Assembly (NCBI GenBank): GCA_964350165.1
Contig: CAYGJA010000002.1
Coordinates: 119,822-183,821 of the forward strand
Length of the DNA: 64,000 bases
Direction of reading: 5' to 3'
DNA from: an uncultured Candidatus Saccharibacteria bacterium
Lineage (GTDB): Bacteria; Patescibacteriota; Minisyncoccia; Phycocordibacterales; UBA1006
The notes under the pieces were generated by a model. That model saw nothing but the letters and a program-made list of their open reading frames with translations, was not told the DNA's origin and did not search any database. Every line of letters begins with the position of its first letter. Position 1 is the first letter of the stretch. Shown piece after piece: positions 7,139 through 64,000 of the stretch. A program made the translations under genes and the position numbers.

Positions 7139-7142
7139 GAGT

Positions 7143-7170
7143 TTGTTGTGGTTAAAATCTTTGCTATACT
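7143..7170 (+). promoter_or_regulatory. Candidate sigma70-type promoter for ndk (-35 TTGTTG, 16-nt spacer, -10 TATACT)
   Basis: The hexamers were read directly. They lie about 40 nt upstream of the ndk ATG. Confidence 0.3.
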
Positions 7171-7209
7171 CCGGCCACTGTAGAACTATTAAGATTTAAC
7201 AATATATTT

Positions 7210-7812
7210 ATGAATCATCCAAAAAAAGAACGAACTTTTGTAATTCTTAAGCCTGATGCAATTCAGCGCTCATTGGTTGGGGAAATTATCGGTCGTTTTG
7301 AAAAAAGTGGACTGAAGATTGTCCACATGGAAATGAAGGTGCTTGACGAAGACCGTTTATGGAAACATTACGACAAAGACGAAGCCTGGTTTGAAAAAAA
7401 AGGACAAAACACTATCGATAATCTCAAGGAAATTGGTCGCGAAATTACAAAAGAGGCGATTGAGTATGGAAAAGATATTATCCGAGGTCTCATTACTTTC
7501 ATGACCGCTGGGCCAGTTGTTATTTTGGTTATAGAGGGTAATAGCGCGGTTGGGATCGTAAAGAAGATGGTTGGAGGTACCGAGCCACTTACTTCTGATG
7601 TGGGAACCATTCGAGGAGACCTTACCCTGGACTCTTACAACATTGCCAATATTGATGCTCGAGCGGTACGAAACCTCGTTCATTGTTCGGATGAACCAGC
7701 CGAAGCGGAAAGAGAAATAGCTTTGTGGGTTGGAGATGATTCAATCGTTAAGTATCGCCACATTAATGAAGCAATGCTTTATGATGTGAACCTGGACGGT
7801 ATTCTCGAATAG
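7210..7812 (+). CDS. ndk: Nucleoside diphosphate kinase, long form with an internal insertion and a C-terminal extension
   Basis: It has the NDK N-terminus (ERTFVILKPDAIQRSLVGEIIGRFEKSGLKIV), LITFMTAGPVVILVIEG and the catalytic His context NLVHCSDEP. Confidence 0.8.
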   Translation: MNHPKKERTFVILKPDAIQRSLVGEIIGRFEKSGLKIVHMEMKVLDEDRLWKHYDKDEAWFEKKGQNTIDNLKEIGREITKEAIEYGKDIIRGLITFMTAGPVVILVIEGNSAVGIVKKMVGGTEPLTSDVGTIRGDLTLDSYNIANIDARAVRNLVHCSDEPAEAEREIALWVGDDSIVKYRHINEAMLYDVNLDGILE

Positions 7813-7990
7813 GTTAATCTGCTATACTGTTACCAGGCTGGTAGGGAATTGAATCTATCAACACTTATGTATCTGAGAGCCTTGATAGGCGGTGTTTAAG
7901 GCACAGCTTTCTGGCACTCACCTGGTTTCCAGGATCAGATTCAATTACGAAGACCAGCCTATCAAAACACCGCCGTAAGGCGGTTTTTTG
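7813..7990 (+). promoter_or_regulatory. Structured intergenic leader RNA candidate (terminator/antiterminator architecture) between ndk and the downstream membrane-protein gene
   Basis: There are long-range complementary arms at 7838-7856 and 7937-7957 and an internal hairpin CCTGG-ttt-CCAGG at 7921-7933. The segment GGCGGTGTTT (7888-7897) is complementary to AAACACCGCC (7965-7974), the 5' strand of the terminator. Confidence 0.35.
7968..7989 (+). terminator. Rho-independent terminator (stem CCGCC / GGCGG, loop GTAA, T6)
   Basis: The terminator sequence caccgccgtaaggcggtttttt was read directly. Confidence 0.7.
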
Positions 7991-8008
7991 TTGGCAATCA
8001 GTTATACT

Positions 8009-8437
8009 ATGAGGGTGAATCATCAGACTATTCTAAAAAAAGGACTTTTTGTGCTGGCTATTGTCGGAATCGCTCAACTGGTTGCTCAAAAAATAGGACT
8101 GTACTGGATATATCCAAACTTTGATATTCCTATGCATTTTTTTGGAGGTGTGTGGTTAGGTTTTTTGGCAACTTGGGCCGTGCTTCGTTTTTCTTTGGTC
8201 AAGCAGATAGATTCCATGATGTATCTGTTTGTTGTCGGGGTAGTTGCTTTTTTGGTTGGGTTCGGTTGGGAGGCTTTTGAATATCTTGTTGATGGCTGGC
8301 TAAGGGTTGGCATGCAGATAAATCTAATAGACACAAAGCTTGATTTGGTCATGGACTTGCTGGGTGCTTACTGCGTAGCCCTTGGGATACTTATTCATAA
8401 TAGAAACAAAAAAGAGTATGTCTTTACAGAACGATAA
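8009..8437 (+). CDS. Small integral membrane protein (about 4 TM helices), function unknown
   Basis: The protein is hydrophobic (LFVLAIVGIAQLV, VWLGFLATWAVL, LFVVGVVAFLVGFGW, LLGAYCVALGIL). The ORF track starts it at TTG 7988. The ATG at 8009 is more likely the true start. Confidence 0.45.
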   Translation: MRVNHQTILKKGLFVLAIVGIAQLVAQKIGLYWIYPNFDIPMHFFGGVWLGFLATWAVLRFSLVKQIDSMMYLFVVGVVAFLVGFGWEAFEYLVDGWLRVGMQINLIDTKLDLVMDLLGAYCVALGILIHNRNKKEYVFTER

Positions 8438-9791
8438 CCCAATCAAGCTTACTTTTGCTGGCGGAGTTGGAACAGTTACTGGTGCTAATTTTATATTAGA
8501 ACATCAGGGTGCACGCTTGATGGTTGATTGCGGAATGGTTCAGGGTTTACCGGATGCAGATGCTCAAAATCGATCTGATTTTGAATATGATCCAGTCGAG
8601 ATTGATGTCGTCGTGATAACTCACGCCCACATGGACCACATTGGAAGATTGCCAAAATTAGTGAGAGATGGTTATCGTGGTCCTATTTACTCAACGGACC
8701 CCACCAAGGATTTGGCGGCCATCATGCTCGAAGACGGTGCTCGTATTGTTGAGGCAGAATCAAAAAAACTAAACCTTGAACCTTGGTATGACCAGTCTGA
8801 TGTTGACAGAACTATTTCTCTGTGGCAAACCATGCCGTATCATGGACAGTCTCTTTTGGCAGAGAAGTTTTCTGTGCGTTTTTTGGATGCTGGCCATGTT
8901 TTGGGTTCGGCCATGGTCGAGGTGACGGTCGGAGGAAAAAAAATCTTGTTTACTGGTGATTTGGGGAATTCTCCGATGCCACTCTTGCGCGATTCTGAAA
9001 TGGCGCCACTGGTCGACTATATCGTTATGGAGAGCGTGTATGGAGATCGTGAGCACGAAGCACGAGATCAGCGTTTACAAAAGCTAGAAAGAACCATTGA
9101 GGAGACAATGCAAGCTGGAGGGGCTTTGATTGTGCCTATTTTTTCACTAGAACGAACGCAAGAGATTTTGTTTGAAATAAACAATCTTGTCGAACAGAAA
9201 AAAATTCCTGTTGTGCCTGTGTTTTTAGATTCACCTCTAGCTATTCGAGTAACAGAGGTATATAAAAAATACAGAAATTATTTTAATAAGGAAGCGGTAG
9301 AGCAGGCAAAAACTGACGATTTGTTTATGTTTCCTGGTTTAAAATTAACCGAAACTAAAGATGAGTCAAAAACCATCAATGACGTTTCAAATCCAAAAAT
9401 AATTATGGCTGGTTCTGGAATGTCTCACGCGGGTAGGGTGATTCATCACGAACGAAGATATTTGCCTGACCCCAACAGCAAAATTCTTTTGGTTGGATAT
9501 CAGGGGGCCGGAACGTTTGGAAGGTTACTGCAATCTAAACCAAAAAAAGTAACCCTGTTTGGTGATTCCGTTCGGGTGCGAGCCGGTATTGAAAGTATCA
9601 AAGGGTATTCTGGCCACAAAGACTTACCTGCTTTGTTGGCTTTTGTGGAACCTGTGGCAGACCATGTTCGGCAAGTTTTTTGTACGATGGGAGAAACAAA
9701 ATCTTCACGTTTTTTGGCTCAGCGTTTGCGAGATTATTATAACGTAAAAGCCGTCGTTCCCACTCTTGGGCAGACTGTTATACTAAAATAA
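8419..9791 (+). CDS. Metallo-beta-lactamase fold, beta-CASP family ribonuclease (RNase J-like)
   Basis: It has the HxHxDH motif (VITHAHMDHIGRLP). The size and downstream motifs fit RNA-metabolising beta-CASP proteins. The start is probably MSLQNDN. Confidence 0.6.
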
Positions 9792-9792
9792 T

Positions 9793-10314
9793 ATGGTTAA
9801 AATGCAAAGCAAAAAAAACATTGCAATCGTAACCCCGTCTTTGTTCCATGAGAAGGTTTCTGCTGACGCAATAGAATCTCTAAAAAAGTCCGGAGAGCAC
9901 CTTGCCTCCAAAGAGTGCGTATTGTTATGTTCTCTGGCAGACAGTGAGGTTCGTTGGACTGCGGAAGCTGCGCAGGTGTCTGGTTGTTTTGGGGTGGCTT
10001 TTTCTCCTGCCGCCAACAAAAAAGAGTCTGAAGAGGTGTATCGAGAACGTAACCCCTGGATTGATTTGGTGATATATACAGGATCTGGCGACGTGAGTCA
10101 TTTGGCGACAATGCTCGAATCAGCAGATGCCTTGCTTTTGCCTGTTTTTCACCCGGTCTTGATTCCGGTTTTAGAAGAATCCTTGCGCCGCTTAACTGCG
10201 GTTACTATTATTACACAGGAGGACAAGGGGAACGTCATGGATCAACTCAGAAAAACCATCGATGCTGTTCTTTTGGAAACGGCAACTATTACTGTTACCG
10301 AGCACCTAGCGTAG
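9793..10314 (+). CDS. Hypothetical protein
   Basis: It is a 173-aa ORF with compact spacing and no recognisable motif. Confidence 0.35.
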   Translation: MVKMQSKKNIAIVTPSLFHEKVSADAIESLKKSGEHLASKECVLLCSLADSEVRWTAEAAQVSGCFGVAFSPAANKKESEEVYRERNPWIDLVIYTGSGDVSHLATMLESADALLLPVFHPVLIPVLEESLRRLTAVTIITQEDKGNVMDQLRKTIDAVLLETATITVTEHLA

Positions 10315-53991: not shown

Positions 53992-54085
53992 CTGTTAATT
54001 ATACCACAAATTACAGATAATTTCAATAATATCTTCACAAAAATACGAAGAGGAAATATTTGGCGACGACGGGCTTGGAGAAGGG

Positions 54086-54598
54086 TTGTATAATGATTTT
54101 GTGAAAAAAATAGTAGTAATGGGCTGTGCGGCTTCAGGAAAAACCACTTTGGCGAAAAAAATAAGCAAAATTATTGATGTTCCGGTTTATCACTTGGACA
54201 GTATTTTTTGGGTGAAAAAAGGAGGAATCAAGCAGGATTTGTTTCTGGAAAAAATCACAAAATTGATGCAGAGGGAAGGATGGGTTATAGAGGGTGATTT
54301 TTCTCGATCAATCACTTTTGAGCCACGTTTACATGCGGCTGATATCATAATTTATTATGATCTTTCTAAGATTATTATTTACTGGCGCCTCTTGAAGCGG
54401 CTTGTAAAAAATTTCTCCAAAGTGCGCGCAGAGATGCCAGGCAACAATACAGAGCTCTCTATATTTATTCCAACCGCAAAACATATTTGGAATTTTCGCT
54501 CAACAAAAGCCCTGGAAAAGATTGAGGAATATAAAAATGCTAAAAAGGTTTTTATTTTAAAAACCCTAAAAGACGAAAAAAAGCTCTTCGCTGGATAA
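54086..54598 (+). CDS. Small P-loop ATPase (topology-modulation protein/adenylate-kinase-like)
   Basis: It has the Walker A motif VVMGCAASGKTTLAKK. The size is 170 aa. Confidence 0.5.
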   Translation: MYNDFVKKIVVMGCAASGKTTLAKKISKIIDVPVYHLDSIFWVKKGGIKQDLFLEKITKLMQREGWVIEGDFSRSITFEPRLHAADIIIYYDLSKIIIYWRLLKRLVKNFSKVRAEMPGNNTELSIFIPTAKHIWNFRSTKALEKIEEYKNAKKVFILKTLKDEKKLFAG

Positions 54599-54713
54599 TG
54601 TCTTTGATGGGTGGGGGTGTGTAGAAAATTAAAGCGAATATGGTTATGGTTTTTTTTGATAGTACAAAATCAAAAATTACGAGTAACAGCATAGTCGGAA
54701 GGCAACAACAATG

Positions 54714-56366
54714 CTAAGACTTATCTGAAAATAAATAGTCTCTTTCATCAACATAACTACCTTTTGGGTACAGAAGATTTCGATACTTCTCGAGTAGTGC
54801 TTTTACCTCATATTGCAGACTCCCCTGAATCTCTTTTTCATAGATACTCCTTAAATCTGAAGTGGCTTGATTTTTAAGATCGATATTTTGTTCATCCCGA
54901 ACATAAAGTACTCCCGAGTTGTAGTGTTTAGTTCTTTCATTAACATGATTACGATGCTCCGTAATCTTTATCATTACCGAACCTAGGCCTTCAGATTTCT
55001 CACTATCTTGTATGTCAACAAATTTATTCTCTAACCAATCGCTATACCCGTGTTTTTGTAAGAGATCCTTAAACTCTTGTGTGAATTGTTGGCCAATTTT
55101 CTGGTGTTTTAACTCTTCTCGTTGGTATGTTGCGTGAACGAGAAGAGAAAGTATCATTTGAGCATTTTTAATATCCTCAATGCTTCCACATAACAACATG
55201 TCGGTTCGCCCAGCAAAGTGTGGCGTTAAGCTCTTTCCATCAGCACCAGGAACGAAGTGTTTTCCAACAACAACCTGACCAGCATCGTAAATGGTTACAC
55301 CATTTATCCCTTGGTTGTGATCAAGAAAAGCAGGAGTGTACTGTAAGGTTTTTGTGCGACTCAACATAAAGGCAAGTGTTGCAATACCGCAACCTTCATT
55401 GTCAAGACGTTGCGGAATGCACGCTTGATAATAAGACTCAGGATCAGTATTTATTCCAGAGCTTTTTTTCTTTTTTTCTAACACCGCAAGACAAAGTTCG
55501 ATCATTTCAGCATTAGCTACAGGATTAGCGACAAAACATGTATCTTGTCCATGTGCAACGAAGCCACCGGTTTTTTTAAGAAAATGACTCAAGGAAGAAT
55601 TTTGACCGGTATGAGCTTTAAGCCCTATGGGCAATAAGGTTTTATCAAACAAAGCTCGCTCAAGCTTTTCTTTTGAAGCTTCCTTAATGACTTCTTTAAT
55701 CTCTCGATCTAGTTCGTTAGTTTCCTTAAAGAAATTCCTTATTGCTTGCTCGGCATACTGCTTGATTCTTTCTTTGCTCTCGAAGACGCTTGATTTGTTT
55801 TTTTCTAGAAAGAGCTTTAGAAATTGAATTTGGTCAAAAGTTATACGATATCCCTTTGAGATATCTTCAAATAGGGTCTTTTGCAGCCCTTGTTCAATAC
55901 CTTGATTATCTAGCATTTTTTCTGTTGTAATTAACTCATCTTTGTGCGGAATTGCTTGTTGATCTTGAAGCAATCCAAAAACATTGCCCAGACTAGAAAC
56001 TCCTCTTATCTCTGAAAGATAATTAAGCCAAAATTTATGCAAAAAACTATACGTCTCGTCAGAATGAGCTAATTTTTGAAATAATGTTTCAGAGACAGTG
56101 GTTGCGTTTTTTATTCTAGTAAAACAATCACCCAGATCAGAAACTACTTTTGTCTTTGAAAGATAATCAAGCCAAAATTTATGAAGGTTTTCATACACCT
56201 GGTCACTTTTCAGTATTGACCGATATTTGTCTTCACCAAACAAGTGCCCCAACGAGCTAGAGTTTTTTATTGTTGAAAGGGTATCACAAAACTCACGCAC
56301 CAAAGCCTCATTTTCTGGTGTTTCATACTGATTATTCCTTTGTGGCTCAGCAAAAGACTCACTCAT
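54714..56366 (-). CDS. Hypothetical 550-aa protein with an N-terminal tandem approximately-45-aa repeat, possibly effector-like
   Basis: The repeats YENLHKFWLDYLSKTKVVSDLGDCF and YSFLHKFWLNYLSEIRGVSSLGNVF match at both protein and DNA level. The C-terminal half contains spaced Cys/His residues (DTCFVANP, EGCGIATLAF, MLLCGSIEDI). Confidence 0.4.
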   Translation of the reverse strand: MSESFAEPQRNNQYETPENEALVREFCDTLSTIKNSSSLGHLFGEDKYRSILKSDQVYENLHKFWLDYLSKTKVVSDLGDCFTRIKNATTVSETLFQKLAHSDETYSFLHKFWLNYLSEIRGVSSLGNVFGLLQDQQAIPHKDELITTEKMLDNQGIEQGLQKTLFEDISKGYRITFDQIQFLKLFLEKNKSSVFESKERIKQYAEQAIRNFFKETNELDREIKEVIKEASKEKLERALFDKTLLPIGLKAHTGQNSSLSHFLKKTGGFVAHGQDTCFVANPVANAEMIELCLAVLEKKKKSSGINTDPESYYQACIPQRLDNEGCGIATLAFMLSRTKTLQYTPAFLDHNQGINGVTIYDAGQVVVGKHFVPGADGKSLTPHFAGRTDMLLCGSIEDIKNAQMILSLLVHATYQREELKHQKIGQQFTQEFKDLLQKHGYSDWLENKFVDIQDSEKSEGLGSVMIKITEHRNHVNERTKHYNSGVLYVRDEQNIDLKNQATSDLRSIYEKEIQGSLQYEVKALLEKYRNLLYPKGSYVDERDYLFSDKS

Positions 56367-56377
56367 GGTTAAATGTA

Positions 56378-56581
56378 TTAAGCAGGTATTCTCTCTGGTT
56401 CTTTTTCCGGCACTGGTTCTACTTTTTCCGGCACCGCCTCTGGTTCTTCTAGGGGCTGCTCTAGAGGCAAAGGATCTTCTTGAGGTTCCTGAAAAGGTAT
56501 TTGTTTTGGAATTCCTGGCTGTTCGGCAATGGGATTAAACCACTCATAAATTTTTTTGGATGTTGTTGCTTGTTCAGACAT
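56378..56581 (-). CDS. Small Pro/Glu-rich ORF immediately upstream of 54714-56366 in another frame, possibly a detached N-terminus
   Basis: It encodes a PEKVEPVPEKEPERIPA low-complexity sequence. There is an 11-nt gap to the next ATG and no RBS. Confidence 0.25.
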   Translation of the reverse strand: MSEQATTSKKIYEWFNPIAEQPGIPKQIPFQEPQEDPLPLEQPLEEPEAVPEKVEPVPEKEPERIPA

Positions 56582-56800
56582 AATGTTGGGATTATTAGCT
56601 TATATATCTATACATAATACCATTATAGATACGCCAAAAAAATAATAATGACACAAAACCACAAAAATCACCTGAGAGGGTGGTTTTTGTGTTGAGGCTG
56701 AAGAATAAGGTGCTAGGTATCTTTTTATAGACATTTCTACTAACAACTAAAAACAAAAAAAGATGATTGAAGGATCTTGAGTTTGAACAATTCAAATACC

Positions 56801-58213
56801 CTACAATGAATAATGAGAATTTTTAATATCGCGTTTCCAAAGCGACATGGGTCTGGTGAGTAAGAAGTACATAATTTCTTGCGGTGTATAGTGATCTTGT
56901 ACCGAATATAGCGCATCTAAACCACTGGTAACAATTGTCCGAAAGTGTTCTTTTTCGCGACTGCTTTCCAGGAGCTCTTCTTTTTTTTGTATGTAAAACT
57001 GCATTGCTTGTTTGATGAAAGAGGGTCTATCGCCCGCCGCAAGACGTGCGAATATTTCATCGCGCATGTTGTCTATTTGCTCGGTCTCACCTCTGTTTCT
57101 TGGGCGCACCTCGCCATTGTGCATCGCCGGCTTTGACCCCCCCCGCCAATCTTTATACGATAATTCAAGCTCATGAAATACGGCATGCATCTGTTCGTGG
57201 TCTATTGTGTTTTGAATTTGACGCTGGAAATAAGGCTTGGATTTTTCCTGTGTTGTTGCATTTATCAGTATTGTTGGTATGAAATCATCTTTATGTTTTG
57301 TGTAAAAAAAGACACCATGTGTGGAACCTTTTTTATTTTCTAGTGCGCAATAGTCTTTTTCTGTTTTTACCATTACCATCAATGAAAAAGGAGTTTTTTT
57401 AAACTCTATTGACTCAGGGTCGAGTGAATTTCTTAATTCAATAGCTTTGTCGTTAGGAATTTCTTGATTTGTCCTTTTTATTACATCTAGGATAAAATCA
57501 ATCTTTGGGATTTCTTTTTGCATAGCAGAATAGCTTCTATAAAAAGAGTCCATTTTTGTGTGGGCATATTTCTGTAATGTAATCGTCGTTTGATTAAAAA
57601 ATTCTACCTCACCATTCTTTTGTTGAGTTATAACATTAAAGGCATTATCTACTAAATCATGCAAAAAAACTGATGTTATTGTCTCGGGGTTACGCTGATA
57701 TTGATTTTTAATTGCAGAAATAGCGTTTTCTGCTGCTCTTTCTAGAGAGTTGCGATATTGCTCTACTGCACTTTTAACTTTACAGAGAACTTCTTCGCGC
57801 AAGGCTGGGGTGATGTTGCGAATACTTGCTGGTAGTCGGATGATTTCCCAGAAATGCTCCTGAATAAAAGCCCTCTGTTGTTGAAGATCTAATTTCTGGA
57901 TGTTTTGCAGTATTCTTTCTTTTTCACGTAGCCGGTGTTCGAGCTCAGCTTTTTCTTCTCGTTTTTTTTGTAGAGCCACAAAGACTTCTTTTGCTTTTTC
58001 GTACCGTTCTGCTTGTCGCTCCGTGAGTCTCTGATAATAATCCAAAGACTCTTCTTCTATAATAGCTCTTCTATTTTGACGATTAAATTGATGAAAAGGT
58101 TCAATCATGTTTTTAGTTTGATGTGAATCTGTAAAACAAATTGTACCATTTAAAATGAACATCGTGAGCGTTATATGGATCTCCGCCGACTGGTGGAGAT
58201 CGAACCTAAACAA
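56801..58213 (-). CDS. Hypothetical 470-aa protein with an HExxH motif and an N-terminal coiled coil, possibly a zinc-metallopeptidase-like effector
   Basis: It has TIDHEQMHAVFHE (HEQMH). It has the coiled-coil sequence EKAKEVFVALQKKREEKAELEHRLREKERILQNIQKLDLQQQ. Confidence 0.35.
   Translation of the reverse strand: MFRFDLHQSAEIHITLTMFILNGTICFTDSHQTKNMIEPFHQFNRQNRRAIIEEESLDYYQRLTERQAERYEKAKEVFVALQKKREEKAELEHRLREKERILQNIQKLDLQQQRAFIQEHFWEIIRLPASIRNITPALREEVLCKVKSAVEQYRNSLERAAENAISAIKNQYQRNPETITSVFLHDLVDNAFNVITQQKNGEVEFFNQTTITLQKYAHTKMDSFYRSYSAMQKEIPKIDFILDVIKRTNQEIPNDKAIELRNSLDPESIEFKKTPFSLMVMVKTEKDYCALENKKGSTHGVFFYTKHKDDFIPTILINATTQEKSKPYFQRQIQNTIDHEQMHAVFHELELSYKDWRGGSKPAMHNGEVRPRNRGETEQIDNMRDEIFARLAAGDRPSFIKQAMQFYIQKKEELLESSREKEHFRTIVTSGLDALYSVQDHYTPQEIMYFLLTRPMSLWKRDIKNSHYSL
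58176..58210. repeat. Cassette-boundary repeat R1 (ggatctccgccgactggtggagatcgaacctaaac), overlapping the PLD gene stop codon
   Basis: It is a member of the GGTTCGAACCTAAAT repeat family. It has a hairpin GATCTCC-N10-GGAGATC. Confidence 0.7.
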
Positions 58214-59240
58214 GATAAATCAGCATTTCTACGGCAGCACCTGTAAGTTTGTCCCACCAGGAGAGAGGGTGATCGGCGGGCTGGTATGCGCGAGCTCGGG
58301 CTAGCCAGTCGGAAACAATTTTCTTTAGACGGACTACGGTTTCTCGATTATTGAGCTCGATGCCGACCTCAGCGTTAAGGCGAAAAGAAAAAACATCTAA
58401 ATTTTGTGAGCCAACCAAGGCGGTTTTGGAATCGATAGTAATTGTCTTGGCATGATTCATGTCCTTGGAAAGATAGATTTCGGCACCAAATTTGTGGGCT
58501 TTGTTGAGAAAATAGATGTTAATGGCATCAATGCTTTCTTGATCAGTTCGGCTGGGAACCAAAAGGATAACGCGAATCCCCCGCAGGCAAGCCTGGTGGA
58601 TTTCTGCCAAGATGTATCGCTTGGGAGCAAAATACGGCGTTGTGATGATAATTTCATGTTCTGCCTCTACAAAATAGCGATGGTAGTCTTGCTGGAGATG
58701 ATGAATCTGAAGGGCGGGGAAGTGTTCGCTTATTTTTGCTCGAGCACGCCCCAGTAAGGTGGTGTTTTTTAGCGCGAGCACTTCCGGGTTTTTTCCTCCT
58801 GCCCAATGATAATCGCACACAAACATATTGGTCAGTCTCTGGATAAGATGCTTGTTTGTAGTTGAGATAGCCAAATCGGCCCAATTTTTTGCTGATTCGT
58901 GAATGTTGACACCACCTGTAAAGACAATTTCCTGGTCAACAATGATGATTTTTCGATGTAGCCGATGTCGATAGCGACTTGCCAAGTGAAGCTCGGCTCC
59001 TGCTTTTTCAAGCTTCTGTTGTTGAAGCTTTGGAAATGCACGACTGCCAAAACCGTCTAACACCAAAACCACTCGCACTCCTGATTCGGCTTTGGATCGA
59101 AGCAGGCTAACAAAGTCGTATTCAGGTGTATCCGGCAAGAAAATATACATCTCAATAAGAATGTATTCCTTTGCGCTCGCCAAGGTGTGGTACATATGTT
59201 TCCAAGCCTTGTGTGACTTGGTATAAAAACGATAGCTCAT
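58206..59240 (-). CDS. Phospholipase D-family protein (two HKD motifs, cardiolipin-synthase/PLD-like)
   Basis: It has HRKIIIVDQEIVFTGGVN and NHAKTITIDSKTALVGSQN. Confidence 0.65.
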   Translation of the reverse strand: MSYRFYTKSHKAWKHMYHTLASAKEYILIEMYIFLPDTPEYDFVSLLRSKAESGVRVVLVLDGFGSRAFPKLQQQKLEKAGAELHLASRYRHRLHRKIIIVDQEIVFTGGVNIHESAKNWADLAISTTNKHLIQRLTNMFVCDYHWAGGKNPEVLALKNTTLLGRARAKISEHFPALQIHHLQQDYHRYFVEAEHEIIITTPYFAPKRYILAEIHQACLRGIRVILLVPSRTDQESIDAINIYFLNKAHKFGAEIYLSKDMNHAKTITIDSKTALVGSQNLDVFSFRLNAEVGIELNNRETVVRLKKIVSDWLARARAYQPADHPLSWWDKLTGAAVEMLIYLV

Positions 59241-59331
59241 ATTTCTAGGCTAAGTATACCAATAGATTAGAAAGACATAGTCAACGTGCATTCGCGAAGC
59301 AATCAAAAAGCTGAATATACCAGCTATCAAT

Positions 59332-59357
59332 CAACTGGCTGGGGTTCGAACCTAAAT
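59332..59357. repeat. Cassette-boundary repeat R2 (caactggctggggttcgaacctaaat), overlapping the stop of 59352-60038
   Basis: It has the perfect 10-bp palindrome GGTTCGAACC. Confidence 0.75.
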
Positions 59358-60038
59358 ATCAATATGCGGCGCAGTGTTGCCCTTAAAGTCCCGTGGATAT
59401 TCTTCTACTTGGACATTAAAAGATGTTGTGTGGCCAGCAAAATAGACTGTCACTTTTGCATCCCCTCGACCAACGATAATAGGAGATGCTGTAAAGCTGG
59501 GTGGTGAATCTTGGCTGGTGCGAGTGTCTGTGATTTGGAAAGACAAGACTCGTGTGTTTGAGGACTCTAGGGCCAGAGGGGTGTCTGGGTTAATTTGTGA
59601 CACATATCGCGCAAAGCCGTCAAAAGAAGGCGCACCGTTAGCTTGTTCAATACGGAGTTCGGGGCCAAATCTACCCCAGTTTTGCTCCACAAAGAATTGA
59701 TTGCTTGAAGGCTTATTTTTGTTGTCGACAAGACTAATAAGCATGTTTTGTCCACATTTAGCTTTTATGTATCGTCTGGAAACCGTGCAGACAGAAATCT
59801 TAGAAAACGCCGGGTTGGGCTCTTGGTTTAGGTTCAAATTAAGCGGATTAAATATCTCGACTACTGGTCGGGGGGCGGGCAAGATTCGTATGTGATTAGC
59901 GTATACATAGCCTATCCATGGAATCACGGAAAAGCTGATTAGGACGAATGTGAAAAATATCTTGGTAAATTTTTGCTCTTTGTCAGGAGTGGGCAAGTCG
60001 GCGACCTTCTGTTCAGGTGGCAACAAGTCGTTTGTCAT
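59352..60038 (-). CDS. Signal-anchored secreted hypothetical protein
   Basis: Its N-terminal TM is IFFTFVLISFSVIPWIGYVYA. It has no recognisable domain. Confidence 0.4.
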   Translation of the reverse strand: MTNDLLPPEQKVADLPTPDKEQKFTKIFFTFVLISFSVIPWIGYVYANHIRILPAPRPVVEIFNPLNLNLNQEPNPAFSKISVCTVSRRYIKAKCGQNMLISLVDNKNKPSSNQFFVEQNWGRFGPELRIEQANGAPSFDGFARYVSQINPDTPLALESSNTRVLSFQITDTRTSQDSPPSFTASPIIVGRGDAKVTVYFAGHTTSFNVQVEEYPRDFKGNTAPHIDI

Positions 60039-60105: not shown

Positions 60106-60138
60106 ATCTCTGCCAACTGGCTGGGGTTCGAACTTAGA
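60106..60138. repeat. Cassette-boundary repeat R3 (atctctgccaactggctggggttcgaacttaga)
   Basis: It shares 25 of 26 nt with R2 and R4. Confidence 0.75.
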
Positions 60139-60179: not shown

Positions 60180-60548
60180 TTGTGCAACAATGAGTCTATG
60201 AAAATTAACACTTTTTCAAAAATAGTCTTGGTCGTGAACATCGTGGCTCTCATTGGCACAGCCTTCCTGTCTTTTAGCCCGTTGCTACTTGTTTTGGTTG
60301 CCCTTAGTTTATATATAATTTTTTCGAAAGAATTATCAGCAAAGTTCCTTTCATTTTTCTCGTATAGCATGAGTTTGGGCTATATCGCCGTATTAGTGAT
60401 GTCAGTCGTGAGGGAGCCGAATATTCTTAGCGCTTACATTGGAGATTATTCTTTGTCCGTGACAGCATTTTTTTACATCAAACAGATCTTGATTATATTC
60501 TTGATTATCGGTTTTTTGTTTGTTGCCCGAATGTTTAGAAAGAAATAA
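60180..60548 (+). CDS. Small integral membrane protein (3-4 TM helices), unknown function
   Basis: It is hydrophobic (IVLVVNIVALIGTAFLSFSPLLLVLVALSLYIIF...). Confidence 0.4.
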   Translation: MCNNESMKINTFSKIVLVVNIVALIGTAFLSFSPLLLVLVALSLYIIFSKELSAKFLSFFSYSMSLGYIAVLVMSVVREPNILSAYIGDYSLSVTAFFYIKQILIIFLIIGFLFVARMFRKK

Positions 60549-60578
60549 ACATCATGCACTTCATGAACGTTAAATCGT

Positions 60579-60611
60579 AGCTCTGCCAACTGGCTGGGGT
60601 TCGAACTTAGA
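60579..60611. repeat. Cassette-boundary repeat R4 (agctctgccaactggctggggttcgaacttaga)
   Basis: It is near-identical to R3. Confidence 0.75.
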
Positions 60612-60658: not shown

Positions 60659-61555
60659 ATGAAAATAAGCTCAAAAATCAAACTAATAATCGGATTACTT
60701 GGGATTGTTGCGGTCGTGCTCTTTGTGTCTAGAGAAGGTTCAAGCATGTCTATGTGGGATCAGTCTAATGTTGCCGGGCCATCCGAAACCATACAAGAAA
60801 GCAGTGCAAAGGACAGGAGAGGGGACTCCAATGAGCCGCTAACGAATACTGTTGTCCTCGTCGATAAGCCACTGGACCAAGATGGTTTTACTGTTTTCCC
60901 AATAACCAAGGCAATGTATGACGAGATCCCTGCGTTTGAGTATCAGCATCAGTTTGCGCAACCATATATGGATGAGTGCCTTGACGCGATCGGGGGCACG
61001 TCCGCATACCTGCGCTGTGTTGAGGGATTTGAGATCGTAAAATATCAAGAGTACGCACGACGAGAGGGAGACTGTTTGATAATTGCCCTAAGAGAGGCGG
61101 GGTCGTTAGAGATTTGTGATCGCAATACGCCTTCTAATCCTGAAAGTTATTACTATGCTACATATATGCCTAAATTAGGGCACGTTTACTTAACGCAGGG
61201 CAACGAATATAGCAGTTACACCTACGTATCTGAAAAAGGAAATGAGATCGCAGTATCTTCAGAGCTGCTCCACCCGATACCTGAAACTAGTTATTATATT
61301 GAAAATCGCATAGATAACGGAGAGTCACGGTACGGATGGAATGGGGTTCGGATTAGGCAACTGCACGAGGGGGTACTGTCTACTGTTTTTGAGTTTAATC
61401 CATTTGATTATGGTGAGACATATGCATTTGAGCGCATTAAATTTGTTGAGCCCGGCAAGTTTTTGTTTAAAAAGTCGCCCGCACCAGAGTATTTAGACCC
61501 AGGGCCGATTGATTGGTTATATGGCGAGGTGAGCTATAAAGTAAAGGCTGAATAG
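60659..61555 (+). CDS. Secreted hypothetical protein (signal anchor; Cys-containing)
   Basis: Its N-terminus is IKLIIGLLGIVAVVLFVS. It has no recognisable domain. Confidence 0.4.
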   Translation: MKISSKIKLIIGLLGIVAVVLFVSREGSSMSMWDQSNVAGPSETIQESSAKDRRGDSNEPLTNTVVLVDKPLDQDGFTVFPITKAMYDEIPAFEYQHQFAQPYMDECLDAIGGTSAYLRCVEGFEIVKYQEYARREGDCLIIALREAGSLEICDRNTPSNPESYYYATYMPKLGHVYLTQGNEYSSYTYVSEKGNEIAVSSELLHPIPETSYYIENRIDNGESRYGWNGVRIRQLHEGVLSTVFEFNPFDYGETYAFERIKFVEPGKFLFKKSPAPEYLDPGPIDWLYGEVSYKVKAE

Positions 61556-61597
61556 CCATTCAAGATAGGAGAATCATCTGATATTTTGCCCTATATA

Positions 61598-61677
61598 ACG
61601 TTCACGACGTTCAGACGTTCACAAAAACCCTAGCGCTAAGGATGCTCCGCGGATTGAGGAGGGTTCGAACCTAAATA
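61598..61677. repeat. Cassette-boundary repeat R5, full-length 80-nt form, overlapping the stop of 61671-62306
   Basis: The sequence is aACGTTCAcgACGTTCAgACGTTCAcaaaaaCCCTAGCGCTAAGGatgCTCCGCGGattgaGGAGGGTTCGAACCtaaat. It contains three 9-bp direct repeats plus the palindromes TAGCGCTA, CCGCGG and GGTTCGAACC. Confidence 0.8.
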
Positions 61678-62306
61678 CTCAGCACTTGTACATAAAAAGT
61701 CTTTTGGAGGATATGGAGTAGCTCCCTAGATCTAGCAATTTGACGGTCGGCATACTCACCAATAGCGCCTTCAATTGGTGCTGTAATTGTAAAATCTCGA
61801 AAGAAGGCCTCCTTGTCAGATTCTGAAACCTCTGACCAAAAAGTTTTTGGTAAGCCAAATTTGCCGTCACGGTGACGCATTATTCTTTGTGTAAGTCTCT
61901 GTAAATAAATATCTTTGCTGTCGGGAAAAAGGAATAAAAACTCGTAATCTCCTGAGTGGGGGTCTAGGATTTTATGTACGGTCGGTGGGTGCTTGATCGG
62001 GCACTCAACAACTACTCTTGAGCCGGCACTATTTATCGCTTGCTGGGCCTGGCGTAGATAATGTTCCATCCATACCTCTTTGCCTTCCCCGCGGTTAACT
62101 CTTTTAAAGGTGTCTCCCGGTTCAAGATTGTATTTCTCAACGATCTCATTTTGGATCATTTGGTCAAGGTCGACCAGGACATATGAGAACTCTTTCCTCA
62201 ATTTCTCGGCAAAAGTGCTTTTGCCCACAGCAGTAGTGCCGTATAGATAGATAACTTTTGGTGAACGGCCGGTGTTGAGTTGCGCGAGATATTCTTGAGT
62301 TTTCAT
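61671..62306 (-). CDS. P-loop kinase-like protein (AAA/zeta-toxin/gluconokinase-like fold)
   Basis: It has the Walker A motif VIYLYGTTAVGKSTFAEKL. The size is 211 aa. Confidence 0.45.
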   Translation of the reverse strand: MKTQEYLAQLNTGRSPKVIYLYGTTAVGKSTFAEKLRKEFSYVLVDLDQMIQNEIVEKYNLEPGDTFKRVNRGEGKEVWMEHYLRQAQQAINSAGSRVVVECPIKHPPTVHKILDPHSGDYEFLFLFPDSKDIYLQRLTQRIMRHRDGKFGLPKTFWSEVSESDKEAFFRDFTITAPIEGAIGEYADRQIARSRELLHILQKTFYVQVLSI

Positions 62307-62325
62307 ATCCTCATCATACCACCCT

Positions 62326-62404
62326 AACGTTCACGACGTTCAGACGTTCACACAGACCCTAGCGGTAAGGATGCTCCCCGTACTAGACAAGTTCCGAACT
62401 TTGG
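62326..62404. repeat. Cassette-boundary repeat R6, full-length form with a degenerate 3' end
   Basis: The sequence aacgttcacgacgttcagacgttcacacagaccctagcggtaaggatgctccccgtactagacaagttccgaactttgg is about 80% identical to R5. Confidence 0.75.
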
Positions 62405-62454
62405 ATTGGATAGAAATTGAGAAGGGATTTCAGTTATTTAGAATGCATAACGAA

Positions 62455-63492
62455 TTATTCAAGACAGTTCTCCAGTAGTTTCAGTTTGGAATTAGTTAAA
62501 TCAATTTCTATCTCAATTCCATTAGGCAGTACTATTTGGGGGTCAGTATGACCAAACTCGGCATTTGTGACTATTGGCAGGTCGGATTGACCGAACTCAA
62601 TTGAAACGACTTCCTTGACTGCTTCGTCTAGCTCCTCTTTTTCTTCGTCCGAATAGTTTCGGGCACGTGCAAAAATGATGCCGTTTATTTTTCCGAAAAC
62701 ACCCTGAACGCCGTAATTTCTTAACATCCATTTTACTGACGAGATAGAAGGTTTTTCTTCTGAAGTCTCAAAAAACAGTATTTTATCATTCCAAAAGTCA
62801 TCATTAGGATAGAAGGTTGTGCTTTTTATAAACTCTAGCACCTCAATACATCCTCCAAAGAGCTTTCCTGATACGACACCTGATCCCTGAATGGTCCTCA
62901 TTCCTTCGTCTTCCTTCAGCTCTTTCGTTTTGCCTAGGTTCTCTTCCTTATGCCAGTCGAGGTAACCGTCACAATACTGACCAAAGTGAGGATATTCGTA
63001 AGTGTCTGAGGGGCTAAACAAAATATCGTATACATGTTGCTTGAAAGCATCTGGCAAGCTTTCCATCTGTGAAAAACCTGCCATTACTGATGGACCATTG
63101 AAGGTCACTAGGCCTAATTGATTTATGTAGGTGAGCAGTGTTGTCGTATCTGAATAGCCCATAAGTATCTTGGGGTTATTTGCAATTACTTCTTTATCCA
63201 AAAATGGCAAAATACGTACAGAGTCATCTCCTCCAATTGAAACCAGGATAGCATTCACTTCTTTGTCAGCAAAAGCATCGTTGATGTCTTTTGCCCTAAG
63301 CTTTGCGTTGGCTAAGCTTGGGTCGCCAACAGCACGAGTGGATGGATATTCTTTAATATTCAGCCCCCACTCCTTGAGAACCTTAAGCCCATTTTCATAT
63401 ACAGCAGGAAAAGTGTTCGGACCTGCCCACGAGGGCGAGAGTACTGCGACGGTGTCGCCAGGATTTAGTTTTTTTGGCTTTTTGTAATTCAT
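62455..63492 (-). CDS. S66-family LD-carboxypeptidase (MccF/LdcA-like)
   Basis: It has PGDTVAVLSPSWAGP and the nucleophile context MGYSDTTTLLTY. Confidence 0.55.
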   Translation of the reverse strand: MNYKKPKKLNPGDTVAVLSPSWAGPNTFPAVYENGLKVLKEWGLNIKEYPSTRAVGDPSLANAKLRAKDINDAFADKEVNAILVSIGGDDSVRILPFLDKEVIANNPKILMGYSDTTTLLTYINQLGLVTFNGPSVMAGFSQMESLPDAFKQHVYDILFSPSDTYEYPHFGQYCDGYLDWHKEENLGKTKELKEDEGMRTIQGSGVVSGKLFGGCIEVLEFIKSTTFYPNDDFWNDKILFFETSEEKPSISSVKWMLRNYGVQGVFGKINGIIFARARNYSDEEKEELDEAVKEVVSIEFGQSDLPIVTNAEFGHTDPQIVLPNGIEIEIDLTNSKLKLLENCLE

Positions 63493-63532
63493 TTCCTGAT
63501 TATATCAAAGTTCTGAGTCCTGTTGGGGTATA

Positions 63533-63563
63533 CAAAAAGACCCTTATGAATAGGGGTCTTTTT
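63533..63563. terminator. Bidirectional hairpin terminator (AAAGACCC-ttatgaata-GGGGTCTTTTT)
   Basis: It was read directly and lies between R7 and the LD-carboxypeptidase gene start. Confidence 0.55.
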
Positions 63564-63600
63564 GATGGCTCCGCGGACTGAGCAGGGTTCGAACCTAAAT
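63564..63600. repeat. Cassette-boundary repeat R7 (gatggctccgcggactgagcagggttcgaacctaaat), overlapping the GNAT gene stop
   Basis: It has the hairpin GCTC-N9-GAGC followed by GGTTCGAACCTAAAT. Confidence 0.75.
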
Positions 63601-64000
63601 CAACTCTTTTTCCATGATGGTTAATGTGTAGGTTGGACGTTTTTTTGTCCCAACCTCTATATACCCTTGTTTTTCATAATAGGCAGGAAGTCCTTTCTCA
63701 TTCATGGCTGTTAGCTGTATTTTTGCAAAACCTTCCTGCTTAGCGGATTCCTCTGCTGCTCTGAGTAGTTTTTTGCCGATACCTTGTGAGCGATAAGTAG
63801 GGAGGCTGGCCATTTGGCTGAGATACGCCGTTCCATCCTGGTCTTCGTATTGGACAGAGCCAGCTATTTTTTGATCCACTTTGGCCACAAAGAGTCGAAC
63901 ATCCTTGGATCGAACTCTTTCTGCATAATCTTCAGGAAAGTGAGGCTTTGAGATTGGCCCTTGGTTTTCGTGGTTTACCGTGTAGGCAAGTGTTAGAAAT
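63595..64000 (-). CDS. GNAT-family N-acetyltransferase (the N-terminus extends beyond the window end)
   Basis: It has RSQGIGKKLLRAAEESAKQEGFAKIQL (acetyl-CoA binding motif). The frame remains open upstream of the annotated Met to position 64000 (…RSKDVRLFVAKVDQKIAG…). Confidence 0.6.
   Translation of the reverse strand, partial: FLTLAYTVNHENQGPISKPHFPEDYAERVRSKDVRLFVAKVDQKIAGSVQYEDQDGTAYLSQMASLPTYRSQGIGKKLLRAAEESAKQEGFAKIQLTAMNEKGLPAYYEKQGYIEVGTKKRPTYTLTIMEKELI

Follow-up and report, generated by a model that had tools for sequence, protein, structure and literature searches.

The window analyzed here is a stretch of 64,000 nt from contig CAYGJA010000002.1 of an uncultured Candidatus Saccharibacteria bacterium, and the subject of this study is a family of related repeats that separate single genes near its right end. 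Two of these repeats, designated R5 and R6, flank a minus-strand open reading frame (ORF) at 61671-62306, and positions 61596-61670 and 62325-62399 form direct repeats with 83% identity across 75 nt. The interpretation developed below, which is held with moderate confidence, is that the repeats are cassette junctions in a variable island built beside a tRNA-Asn gene by a large serine recombinase (LSR), and that each of them consists of two functionally different parts, a tRNA-like core and a flank with terminator and promoter features.

The cassette array and its relatives in metagenomes

The initial annotation described R5 and R6 as two full-length copies that bracket a single P-loop kinase gene. 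The direct repeats do flank the ORF, however, a third full-length module is located just past position 64000, and the kinase gene is therefore not uniquely bracketed by full-length copies. This module is found on Logan contig L005, which is identical to window positions 62372-64000 and extends 170 nt past 64000, where a triplet, a palindrome and the start of an eighth core are located directly upstream of the GNAT gene. The same module, together with the recurrence of full modules throughout other metagenome arrays, contradicts the proposal that only the most recent insertion keeps full-length sites. As to the kinase, the ORF does have a P-loop (AAA_33) match, but a weak one (E 1.9e-5) that remains under the Pfam cut-off, and the sole homologue found is P0002 (65% protein identity), which is carried by contigs L001-L003.

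The repeat family is non-random and local, as had been claimed: the motif GGTTCGAAC has 8 matches versus 0.44 expected, all of them within 59.3-63.6 kb of the window. A profile derived from 27 distinct cores identified six window cores with nhmmer, all on the minus strand between 58181 and 63600, and gave no match in the remaining 58 kb of the window. R6 (62373-62399) is a seventh window core, which belongs to a sequence type separate from the six profile matches. Each junction formed by these seven minus-strand cores (58.2-63.6 kb) is the border of a single-gene cassette, and the site-to-site spacings of 0.5-1.9 kb are the cassette sizes. Furthermore, the TAG within the TTTAGG of the core serves as the stop codon of the same-strand genes 58206, 59352, 61671 and 63595. 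The cores, along with the kinase and LD-carboxypeptidase genes, are the following.

58181-58210, minus strand: core R0, degenerate, 26-nt span (E 1.5e-3)
59334-59357, minus strand: core R1, left part intact, GCGGAGC box lost (E 9.6e-5)
60109-60138, minus strand: core R2, near-identical to R3 (E 6.3e-5), adjoins the inverted cassette gene 60180-60548 (plus strand)
60578-60611, minus strand: core R3, GTTCGAACCCCAGCCAGTTGGCAGAGC, 27-nt span (E 4.3e-6), adjoins the inverted cassette gene 60659-61555 (plus strand)
61643-61676, minus strand: core R5 (type A), TTTAG GTTCGAAC CCTCCTCAATCC GCGGAGC, 27-nt span (nhmmer E 1.9e-10)
62373-62399, minus strand: core R6 (type C), GTTCGGAACTTGTCTAGTACGGGGAGC, 27-nt span, located after the LD-carboxypeptidase cassette and a conserved CCAATCCAAA flank
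63566-63600, minus strand: core R7 (type A), contains the TAG stop of the GNAT gene (E 2.5e-11)
61671-62306, minus strand: kinase cassette gene, P-loop kinase-like, 211 aa
62455-63492, minus strand: LD-carboxypeptidase gene, preceded by TTTGATATAAT-N6-ATG

Gene 59352-60038 has its TAG stop within core R1, after which comes a terminator-like hairpin (59309-59325). Similarly, core R0 contains the stop of the PLD-like gene 58206-59240, and decayed triplet repeats are found after it. R0 is located at the right edge of a low-GC stretch (54000-58200, 36-38% versus ~44%), which has no core further in and may represent the old, decayed end of the island. This stretch holds ORFs 54714-56366 and 56801-58213, which are without a family match, and a second P-loop ORF at 54086-54598. 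A 63-nt repeat with 83% identity and a spacing of 144 nt (55977-56183) and a 21-nt tandem repeat (56401-56442) are located in or beside a 550-aa orphan ORF, and both are probably protein-internal repeats. At the other side of the array, two contigs from two other sequencing runs (L024 and L025, corresponding to window positions 62323-63597) present the LD-carboxypeptidase cassette as a separate contig of ~1.27 kb. One end of the contig lies exactly at TAGGTTCGAAC and the opposite end after the triplet, and these repeat-induced assembly breaks trace the outline of the cassette. Alternative junctions were sought in both contigs and none was found, both being identical to the window and ending at repeats.

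A metagenome scan revealed 10 aquatic or saline loci with core arrays. The cores within each array all have the same orientation (L008 has 7 within 7.4 kb, and L012 has at least 4 within 4.3 kb), and they separate single genes that are mostly on the strand of the core, with some inverted. The cargo includes GNAT, P-loop kinase, Fic/RhuM, methyltransferase, nucleotidyltransferase and JmjC genes, and many genes of no assigned family. In L001 and L002, the gene of the kinase homologue P0002 is located directly 3' of tRNA-Asn(GTT) in the same orientation, and is followed by the same cores, palindrome and triplets. In L006, tRNA-Asn is likewise followed by a core in the same orientation.

Among 185,579 species-representative genomes, exact patterns for the triplet plus palindrome and for the core gave no match, and scans of viral contigs gave none either. 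Searches of Pfam, PHROGs, NCBIfam and PDB assigned no family to the core-adjacent ORFs 54714-56366 and 56801-58213 of the window, 6776-8041 of L014 and 1040-2083 of L006, and a literature search, which was not exhaustive, found no published description of this arrangement.

The core, tRNA-Asn and the large serine recombinase

Read on the minus strand, the core has the form TTTAG-GTTCGAAC-CCTSCTCARTCC-GCGGAGC and matches tRNA-Asn in its T-loop and in the 3' strand of its acceptor. The part of the repeat that had been seen as a hairpin plus GGTTCGAACC is the reverse complement of the T-loop and acceptor end of this tRNA. The real tRNA-Asn genes read CAG-GTTCGAAT-CCTGTCG-GCGGAGC in L001 and TAG-GTTCGAAT-CCTACCG-GCGGAGC in L006, and the window core is 5 bases longer in between. 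The span from GTTCGAA to GGAGC is 22 nt in all four real tRNA-Asn 3' ends (L001, L006, L016 and L020). In the cores, of which 27 distinct ones from three sequence types were compared, it is 27 nt, with one 23-nt exception, and the sequence inside the 27-nt span varies among the core types as its length holds. In addition, the cores are better conserved than the surrounding genes, across distant metagenomes. ARAGORN and Rfam returned no tRNA and no RNA-family match in the window.

Of the three core types, type A reads CCCTSCTCARTCC and retains a T-stem of 3-4 bp. Type B reads CTAAACKCAGTCG, in which the TAA within GAACTAAAC serves as a stop codon, and type C reads TCTTGTCTACTAC; neither has a complementary 3' strand of the T-stem. 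The window core R6 belongs to type C, along with the core at L007 341 (= L016 1082) and the one in L015. This bears on the claim that three palindromes are present in both full-length copies. The palindrome CCCTAGCGCTAAGG is found at 61628-61641 and its variant CCCTAGCGGTAAGG at 62357-62370, but the last ~26 nt of R6 are without CTCC..GGAG and GGTTCGAACC, and R6 is not a decayed copy, its GTTCGGAACTTGTCTAGTACGGGGAGC representing another core type, which is present in L007 and L015 as well. Comparisons of the cores by eye with XerC/D dif-like sites and with D-arm-like or permuted tRNAs were also made, and both remained unsupported.

The attachment (att) sites of LSRs have a 40-50 bp architecture, in which the 9-bp zinc-ribbon motif is located at positions 16-24 of the attP half-site and at 11-19 of the attB half-site, a shift of 5 bp (PMC3783163). 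When the GA of GCGGAGC is taken as the centre, GGTTCGAAT occupies positions 11-19 of the tRNA site and GGTTCGAAC positions 16-24 of the cores, and GGTTCGAAY fits both half-site positions exactly. This suggests that the cores have the half-site geometry of an attP-type LSR site and the tRNA that of an attB-type site.

LSR genes are present at the tRNA end in relatives of the window array. An ORF beside a core in L014 reads through the core and ends inside it (..DWLRGLNRVRT*), and its C-terminal ~100 residues match the ends of ~500-aa LSRs (PF00239, PF07508, PF13408) in a homology search; family libraries gave nothing. Two of the matching LSR proteins are named "recombinase family protein" and are assigned to Candidatus Paceibacterota or Pacebacteria, a name that leads to the phylum Minisyncoccota in the current NCBI taxonomy. 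L014 shows a deletion derivative of a larger element. An element of ~10 kb is found in L016, which is the same JGI contig as the array L007, between the type C core at L016 1082, which has the orientation of the tRNA and is located on its 3' side, and the 3' end of tRNA-Asn. It consists of genes of no family, a recombinase fragment, and genes for an HTH_17 protein, a D12 methylase, RE_AlwI, a second methylase and the LSR, which is convergent with tRNA-Asn and overlaps it. The attL and attR of this element have only CGCGGAGC in common. Beyond the tRNA, the genes for DUF167, TruB, IF3, L20 and ribonucleotide reductase follow, and the same neighbours are present in L001, which has no LSR or LSR relic. 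The same LSR-at-tRNA-Asn layout is found in L020 (NCBI assembly GCA_036517195.1), and L006 has LSR relics against the tRNA. Furthermore, many members of this LSR family end in reverse-translated tRNA-end peptides, such as WLRGLDSNQ and WLRDQGSNL.

Comparison of the arrays shows that cassette orders differ. The order of the GNAT and kinase genes is reversed between the window and L001, the GNAT genes sharing ~83% DNA identity and the kinases 65% protein identity, and the cassette found after the tRNA in L006 recurs after a core in L014 (69% identity across 240 nt). A recent breakpoint is provided by L011 and L015, which share 99.7% identity on the right side of a core but have unrelated sequences on its left side. 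L011 reads ..GTTCCGAACTCGAGAC|GGGGAGCAATTTT and L015 reads ..GTTCTGAACTCGTCCAACAA|GGGGAGCAATTTT, and because the two sequences diverge only left of GGGGAGCAATTTT, the switch can be placed just before the acceptor-like box GGGGAGC. This site coincides with the predicted crossover, and the core flanks share only ~7 nt there. As the initial annotation proposed, the repeats are very probably site-specific recombination sites between mobile cassettes. It had assigned this role to the iterons and palindromes, however, and the recombination part would rather be the 3' third of the repeat, the hairpin and GGTTCGAACC, which every family member holds.

Several further features accompany the LSR elements. 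The cargo of the L016 element (6147-9997) comprises D12 methylase, RE_AlwI and N6_N4 methylase, that of the L020 element (5747-9995) a methylase and a SWI2/SNF2 helicase, and a ~60-aa HTH_17 protein is located ahead of the cargo in both. The tRNA-Asn(GTT) genes of L016 (11486-12310, minus strand) and L020 (11500-11895, minus strand) are split after the CTGT of the anticodon loop by group I introns (RF00028 in Rfam, with 81.4 bits in L016 and a score of 43.3 bits, under the gathering score, in L020), and the intron of L016 holds a 109-aa ORF. ARAGORN misses both split tRNAs; in L001 and L006 the tRNA-Asn gene is uninterrupted by an intron.

Some modules in the metagenome arrays also contain inserted IS200-like Y1 transposase genes, which are flanked by inverted GGGGACAGGCAC and tandem AATGGGGACA repeats, and in L001 an otherwise empty cassette is filled by the same GGGACAGGCAC..GTGCCTGTCCC hairpin. 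The Y1 and repeat loci are the following.

L008, 1-129 and 6440-7220
L010, 2264-3002
L001, 10370-10440 and 3047-3718

The Y1 transposase of L001 and L008 was considered as the cassette recombinase and rejected, as it has its own GGGGACAGGCAC inverted repeats and is merely inserted into modules. Together with its repeats it looks like a separate REP/RAYT-like system.

Terminator and promoter features of the flank

The second part of each module is located between the core and the start of the next cassette gene, and comprises these features in the window.

61598-61621, minus strand: triplet TGAACGTCTGAACGTCGTGAACGT (ACGTTCA x3 on the plus strand), orphan copy
61622-61641, minus strand: imperfect palindrome CCTTAGCGCTAGGG followed by TTTTTG, at the position of the GC hairpin and T-run in the W_63595, L007 and L008 modules
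62313-62321, minus strand: extended -10 TGGTATGAT, 6 nt before the kinase ATG, a probable leaderless-type promoter
62327-62350, minus strand: triplet of module R6 (TGAACGT x3), immediately upstream of the putative kinase promoter, a proposed operator or -35 region
62357-62370, minus strand: palindrome variant CCTTACCGCTAGGG of module R6
63534-63563, minus strand: GC hairpin and T-run (AAAAAGACCCCTATTCATAAGGGTCTTTTT), right after core R7 and ahead of the putative LD-carboxypeptidase promoter

A GC hairpin with a T-run comes after the core in every module, and L007 and L008 have an extra small hairpin, TACCGAnCTGCTTGGTA, before these. The window palindrome with its TTTTTG is probably a weak intrinsic terminator, a reading that is based on its location exactly at the hairpin position of the other modules.

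The three ACGTTCA repeats reported for each copy are indeed present, starting at 61598, 61607 and 61615 in one and at 62327, 62336 and 62344 in the other (9- and 8-nt spacing). The 7-mer is not enriched in the window (9 versus 7.5 expected), and the non-random part is the conserved 24-nt triplet block. Inverted copies were said to accompany both R1 and R4, yet only one exact copy is found beside any family member, at 60564-60570. The triplet, TGAACGTCTGAACGTYGTGAACGT, is conserved in the window, L001, L005, L007, L008 and L014, and in about 10 of 16 cases it is located just upstream of an extended -10 that is placed 6 nt from the ATG. Examples of this -10-N6-ATG layout are the kinase (TGGTATGAT GAGGAT ATG) and GNAT (TGGTATAAT GTAAAT ATG) genes. 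The triplet of L014 has the opposite orientation to its core, and another copy is found ahead of an opposite-strand gene; the copy at 61598-61621 is considered an orphan because the next gene is on the opposite strand. Since the triplet adjoins the -10, occurs inverted to the core and is missing from most cores, it is probably a part of the promoter or operator and located outside the recombination site.

A TGnTAnnnT box, which corresponds to the extended -10, is also found exactly 6 nt before many gene starts, both in the window (4346, 34902 on the minus strand, 41235, 62306 and 63492) and in many other loci. This layout suggests that leaderless mRNAs are common in this lineage. A generic sigma-70 promoter and terminator scan was not enriched over shuffles and did not pick the module features.

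It seems unlikely that the ACGTTCA triplet and the palindromes are instead accessory protein sites, either of the arm type or for an Xis/directionality factor, or iterons of a replication origin. Such a role would be consistent with three direct repeats at 8-9 nt spacing and at ~20-45 bp from the core (60-90 bp in longer modules), with their conservation in the window, L001, L007, L008 and L014, and with the small HTH_17 (excisionase-family) protein encoded by the LSR elements of relatives. However, LSRs use short sites and are not known to have arm sites, and the triplet is missing from most cores and appears inverted to the core or ahead of opposite-strand genes, always beside a -10, with the palindrome occupying the terminator position of other modules. 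Iterons are defined by repeats of ~17-22 bp by a rep gene and an AT-rich region, and the units here are 7 nt long at 8-9 nt spacing, with no Rep gene among the scanned ORFs. Structure prediction on both strands found no element that folds better than its shuffles (12 element strands, z -1.5 to +0.8). As there is neither a Rep gene nor a hairpin fold, a replication origin or an integron attC site does not fit, and the earlier suggestion of a replication site is not sustained.

Interpretation and comparison with known systems

According to the favoured interpretation, the core (minus strand: TTTAG-GTTCGAAC-N12-GCGGAGC) would be an attP-type left half-site with a crossover region, in which the T-loop motif is positioned 5 bp further out, and the LSR would cross over inside GCG[GA]GC. 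The incoming tRNA-distal DNA would contribute the terminal bases of the tRNA together with its trailer, and the left P-type half-site would remain on the end of the preceding gene, which stops inside the half-site. In the flank, the palindrome or hairpin with its T-run would act as a terminator, and TGAACGT x3 with TGGTATGAT-N6-ATG as the promoter or operator of the next cassette gene, the triplet thereby having a regulatory role. The array would grow by repeated entry at the tRNA, which pushes older units outward, and single cassettes would be either mobile on their own or leftovers of larger elements after deletion. An LSR is expected to act on these cores, and the window array presumably also abuts a tRNA-Asn gene.

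Several points weigh against this interpretation. Neither an LSR gene nor an LSR relic (tblastn) nor a tRNA (ARAGORN, Rfam) is found in the 64-kb window, and its link to the LSR and the tRNA rests on relatives. Excised circles and variant junctions were not seen. The cores differ greatly in their right halves, where inspection by eye revealed no inverted GTTCGAACC-like motif, either at 11-19 or at 16-24, unlike in many LSR sites. As some LSR sites are asymmetric, the missing symmetry lowers the probability of the LSR-site claim without excluding it. The 27-nt span could partly result from common descent instead of constraint. Furthermore, canonical LSRs recombine attP with attB only, and serial insertion at an attL-like site would therefore need relaxed pairing or a directionality factor. 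Ccr recombinases have been reported to accept relaxed site pairing. Finally, the ~100-nt flanks are 85-94% identical between the modules of one array, and homologous recombination alone could thus shuffle the cassettes.

This last point is central to the view that the repeats are a non-mobile intergenic module of terminator and promoter, similar to BIME, Correia or BOX elements, which expanded inside a single locus, is shuffled only by homologous recombination or gene conversion and resembles a tRNA by historical accident. An identity of 85-94% over 80-120 nt within an array suffices for homologous recombination, the modules do bear terminator and promoter features, and no recombination event was directly observed. 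A module of this kind is nevertheless quite unlikely in view of the exact 27-nt span across three diverged core types, the LSR genes that overlap the tRNA end at the array heads, the switch between L011 and L015 inside a core with so little shared flanking sequence, and the limitation of the cores to one locus and one orientation.

The cores might alternatively be displaced, decaying and functionless partial copies of the tRNA-Asn 3' end in a tRNA island of a tyrosine integrase. Their resemblance to the tRNA-Asn 3' end and their location 3' of the tRNA in the same orientation would be expected from such an island, serial integration that leaves scattered partial tRNAs has been documented in tycheposon islands (10.1101/2020.12.28.424599), and PMC4383910 attributes integration into tRNA genes usually to tyrosine integrases. 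However, the cores are not plain tRNA copies, since 27 distinct ones carry 5 extra nt, they are more conserved than nearby genes across distant metagenomes, and ORFs terminate within them. In addition, no tyrosine recombinase domain was detected in 36 scanned ORFs or in precomputed Pfam annotations (L001-L004, L016-L023), and the recombinase found at the tRNA is of the serine type, all of which makes this origin decidedly doubtful.

A role of the core at the RNA level, as a tRNA-like 3' UTR element (a T-arm mimic) for mRNA processing or stabilisation, would agree with its position after the stop codon and before the terminator in same-strand cassettes and with the T-stem of 3-4 bp in type A. 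It is very improbable, as types B and C lack the complementary strand of this stem, the core is not transcribed in sense from inverted cassettes, the folding z-scores lie close to zero and the window has no Rfam match. An integron with attC sites and an IntI tyrosine integrase can be practically dismissed in spite of the single-ORF cassettes of 0.5-1.9 kb and the same-orientation sites that overlap stop codons, given that the single-stranded DNA folding of the elements was no better than that of shuffles for either strand, no R''/R' pair (RYYYAAC/GTTRRRY) was seen by eye, no IntI was found in the scanned ORFs (window 54-64 kb, L006-L014) or in precomputed annotations, and the cassettes have their own predicted promoters and terminators.

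If the interpretation as LSR-built cassette junctions is extended, the arrays might represent a serine-recombinase counterpart of the integron in ultra-small Patescibacteria-like bacteria, in which single genes, each equipped with a terminator and a leaderless promoter, would be individually captured, excised and reshuffled at tRNA-Asn. The reaction would use the P-type half-sites resembling the tRNA end, and a resident or visiting LSR element would provide the recombinase in trans. This extension is tentative and, on present evidence, has less than an even chance. If the favoured interpretation is correct, the island would provide a route for the gain and loss of accessory genes in very small genomes with few known mobile elements. 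The arrays would also offer a natural series of attP- and attB-type half-sites with the 5-bp shift that is thought to set the directionality of serine integrases, enzymes that are widely used in genome engineering. For annotation there is a risk that cores are mistaken for tRNA fragments or attC-like sites.

Among known systems, the LSRs of phages (LI/A118, Bxb1 and phiC31) resemble the ~500-aa proteins with Resolvase, Recombinase and zinc-ribbon domains at the array heads, and in their att sites the motif is likewise located 5 bp further out in one site class, attP compared to attB. In contrast to the phage systems, the arrays target the 3' end of a tRNA gene, which is overlapped by the recombinase gene, and many putative P-type half-sites are present in tandem in the chromosome, with right halves that are variable and without obvious symmetry.

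In staphylococci, the Ccr large serine recombinases insert the staphylococcal cassette chromosome elements SCC and SCCmec at the 3' end of rlmH/orfX. These elements and the present arrays share an insertion mode that targets the 3' end of a conserved gene and leaves this gene intact, and tandem arrays that include recombinase-less units separated by repeated attachment sequences. Both would require a recombinase that accepts pairings beyond attP x attB, as has been reported for Ccr. Unlike in SCC elements, the units here are single genes of 0.5-1.9 kb, each with a predicted promoter and terminator. Furthermore, a tRNA is targeted, an uncultured Patescibacteria-like lineage is the host, and the site mimics a tRNA and has a span fixed at 27 nt.

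Tycheposons are multi-gene, integrase-carrying elements, and are much larger than the cassettes described here. With tycheposon and other tRNA islands the arrays share entry at a tRNA, which displaces older elements, and scattered partial tRNA-like repeats (10.1101/2020.12.28.424599); the repeats here differ in that they carry 5 extra nt and are conserved instead of decaying. Integrons, in turn, have similarly compact single-ORF cassettes with same-orientation sites touching stop codons, and the cargo of GNAT, toxin-like and methyltransferase genes is also comparable. However, the arrays have no tyrosine integrase in the examined ORFs, their sites have no hairpin fold, each cassette has its own predicted promoter, and the primary site is a tRNA gene. 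To conclude, the locus would be best compared to an SCC- or tycheposon-like island with integron-like compaction.

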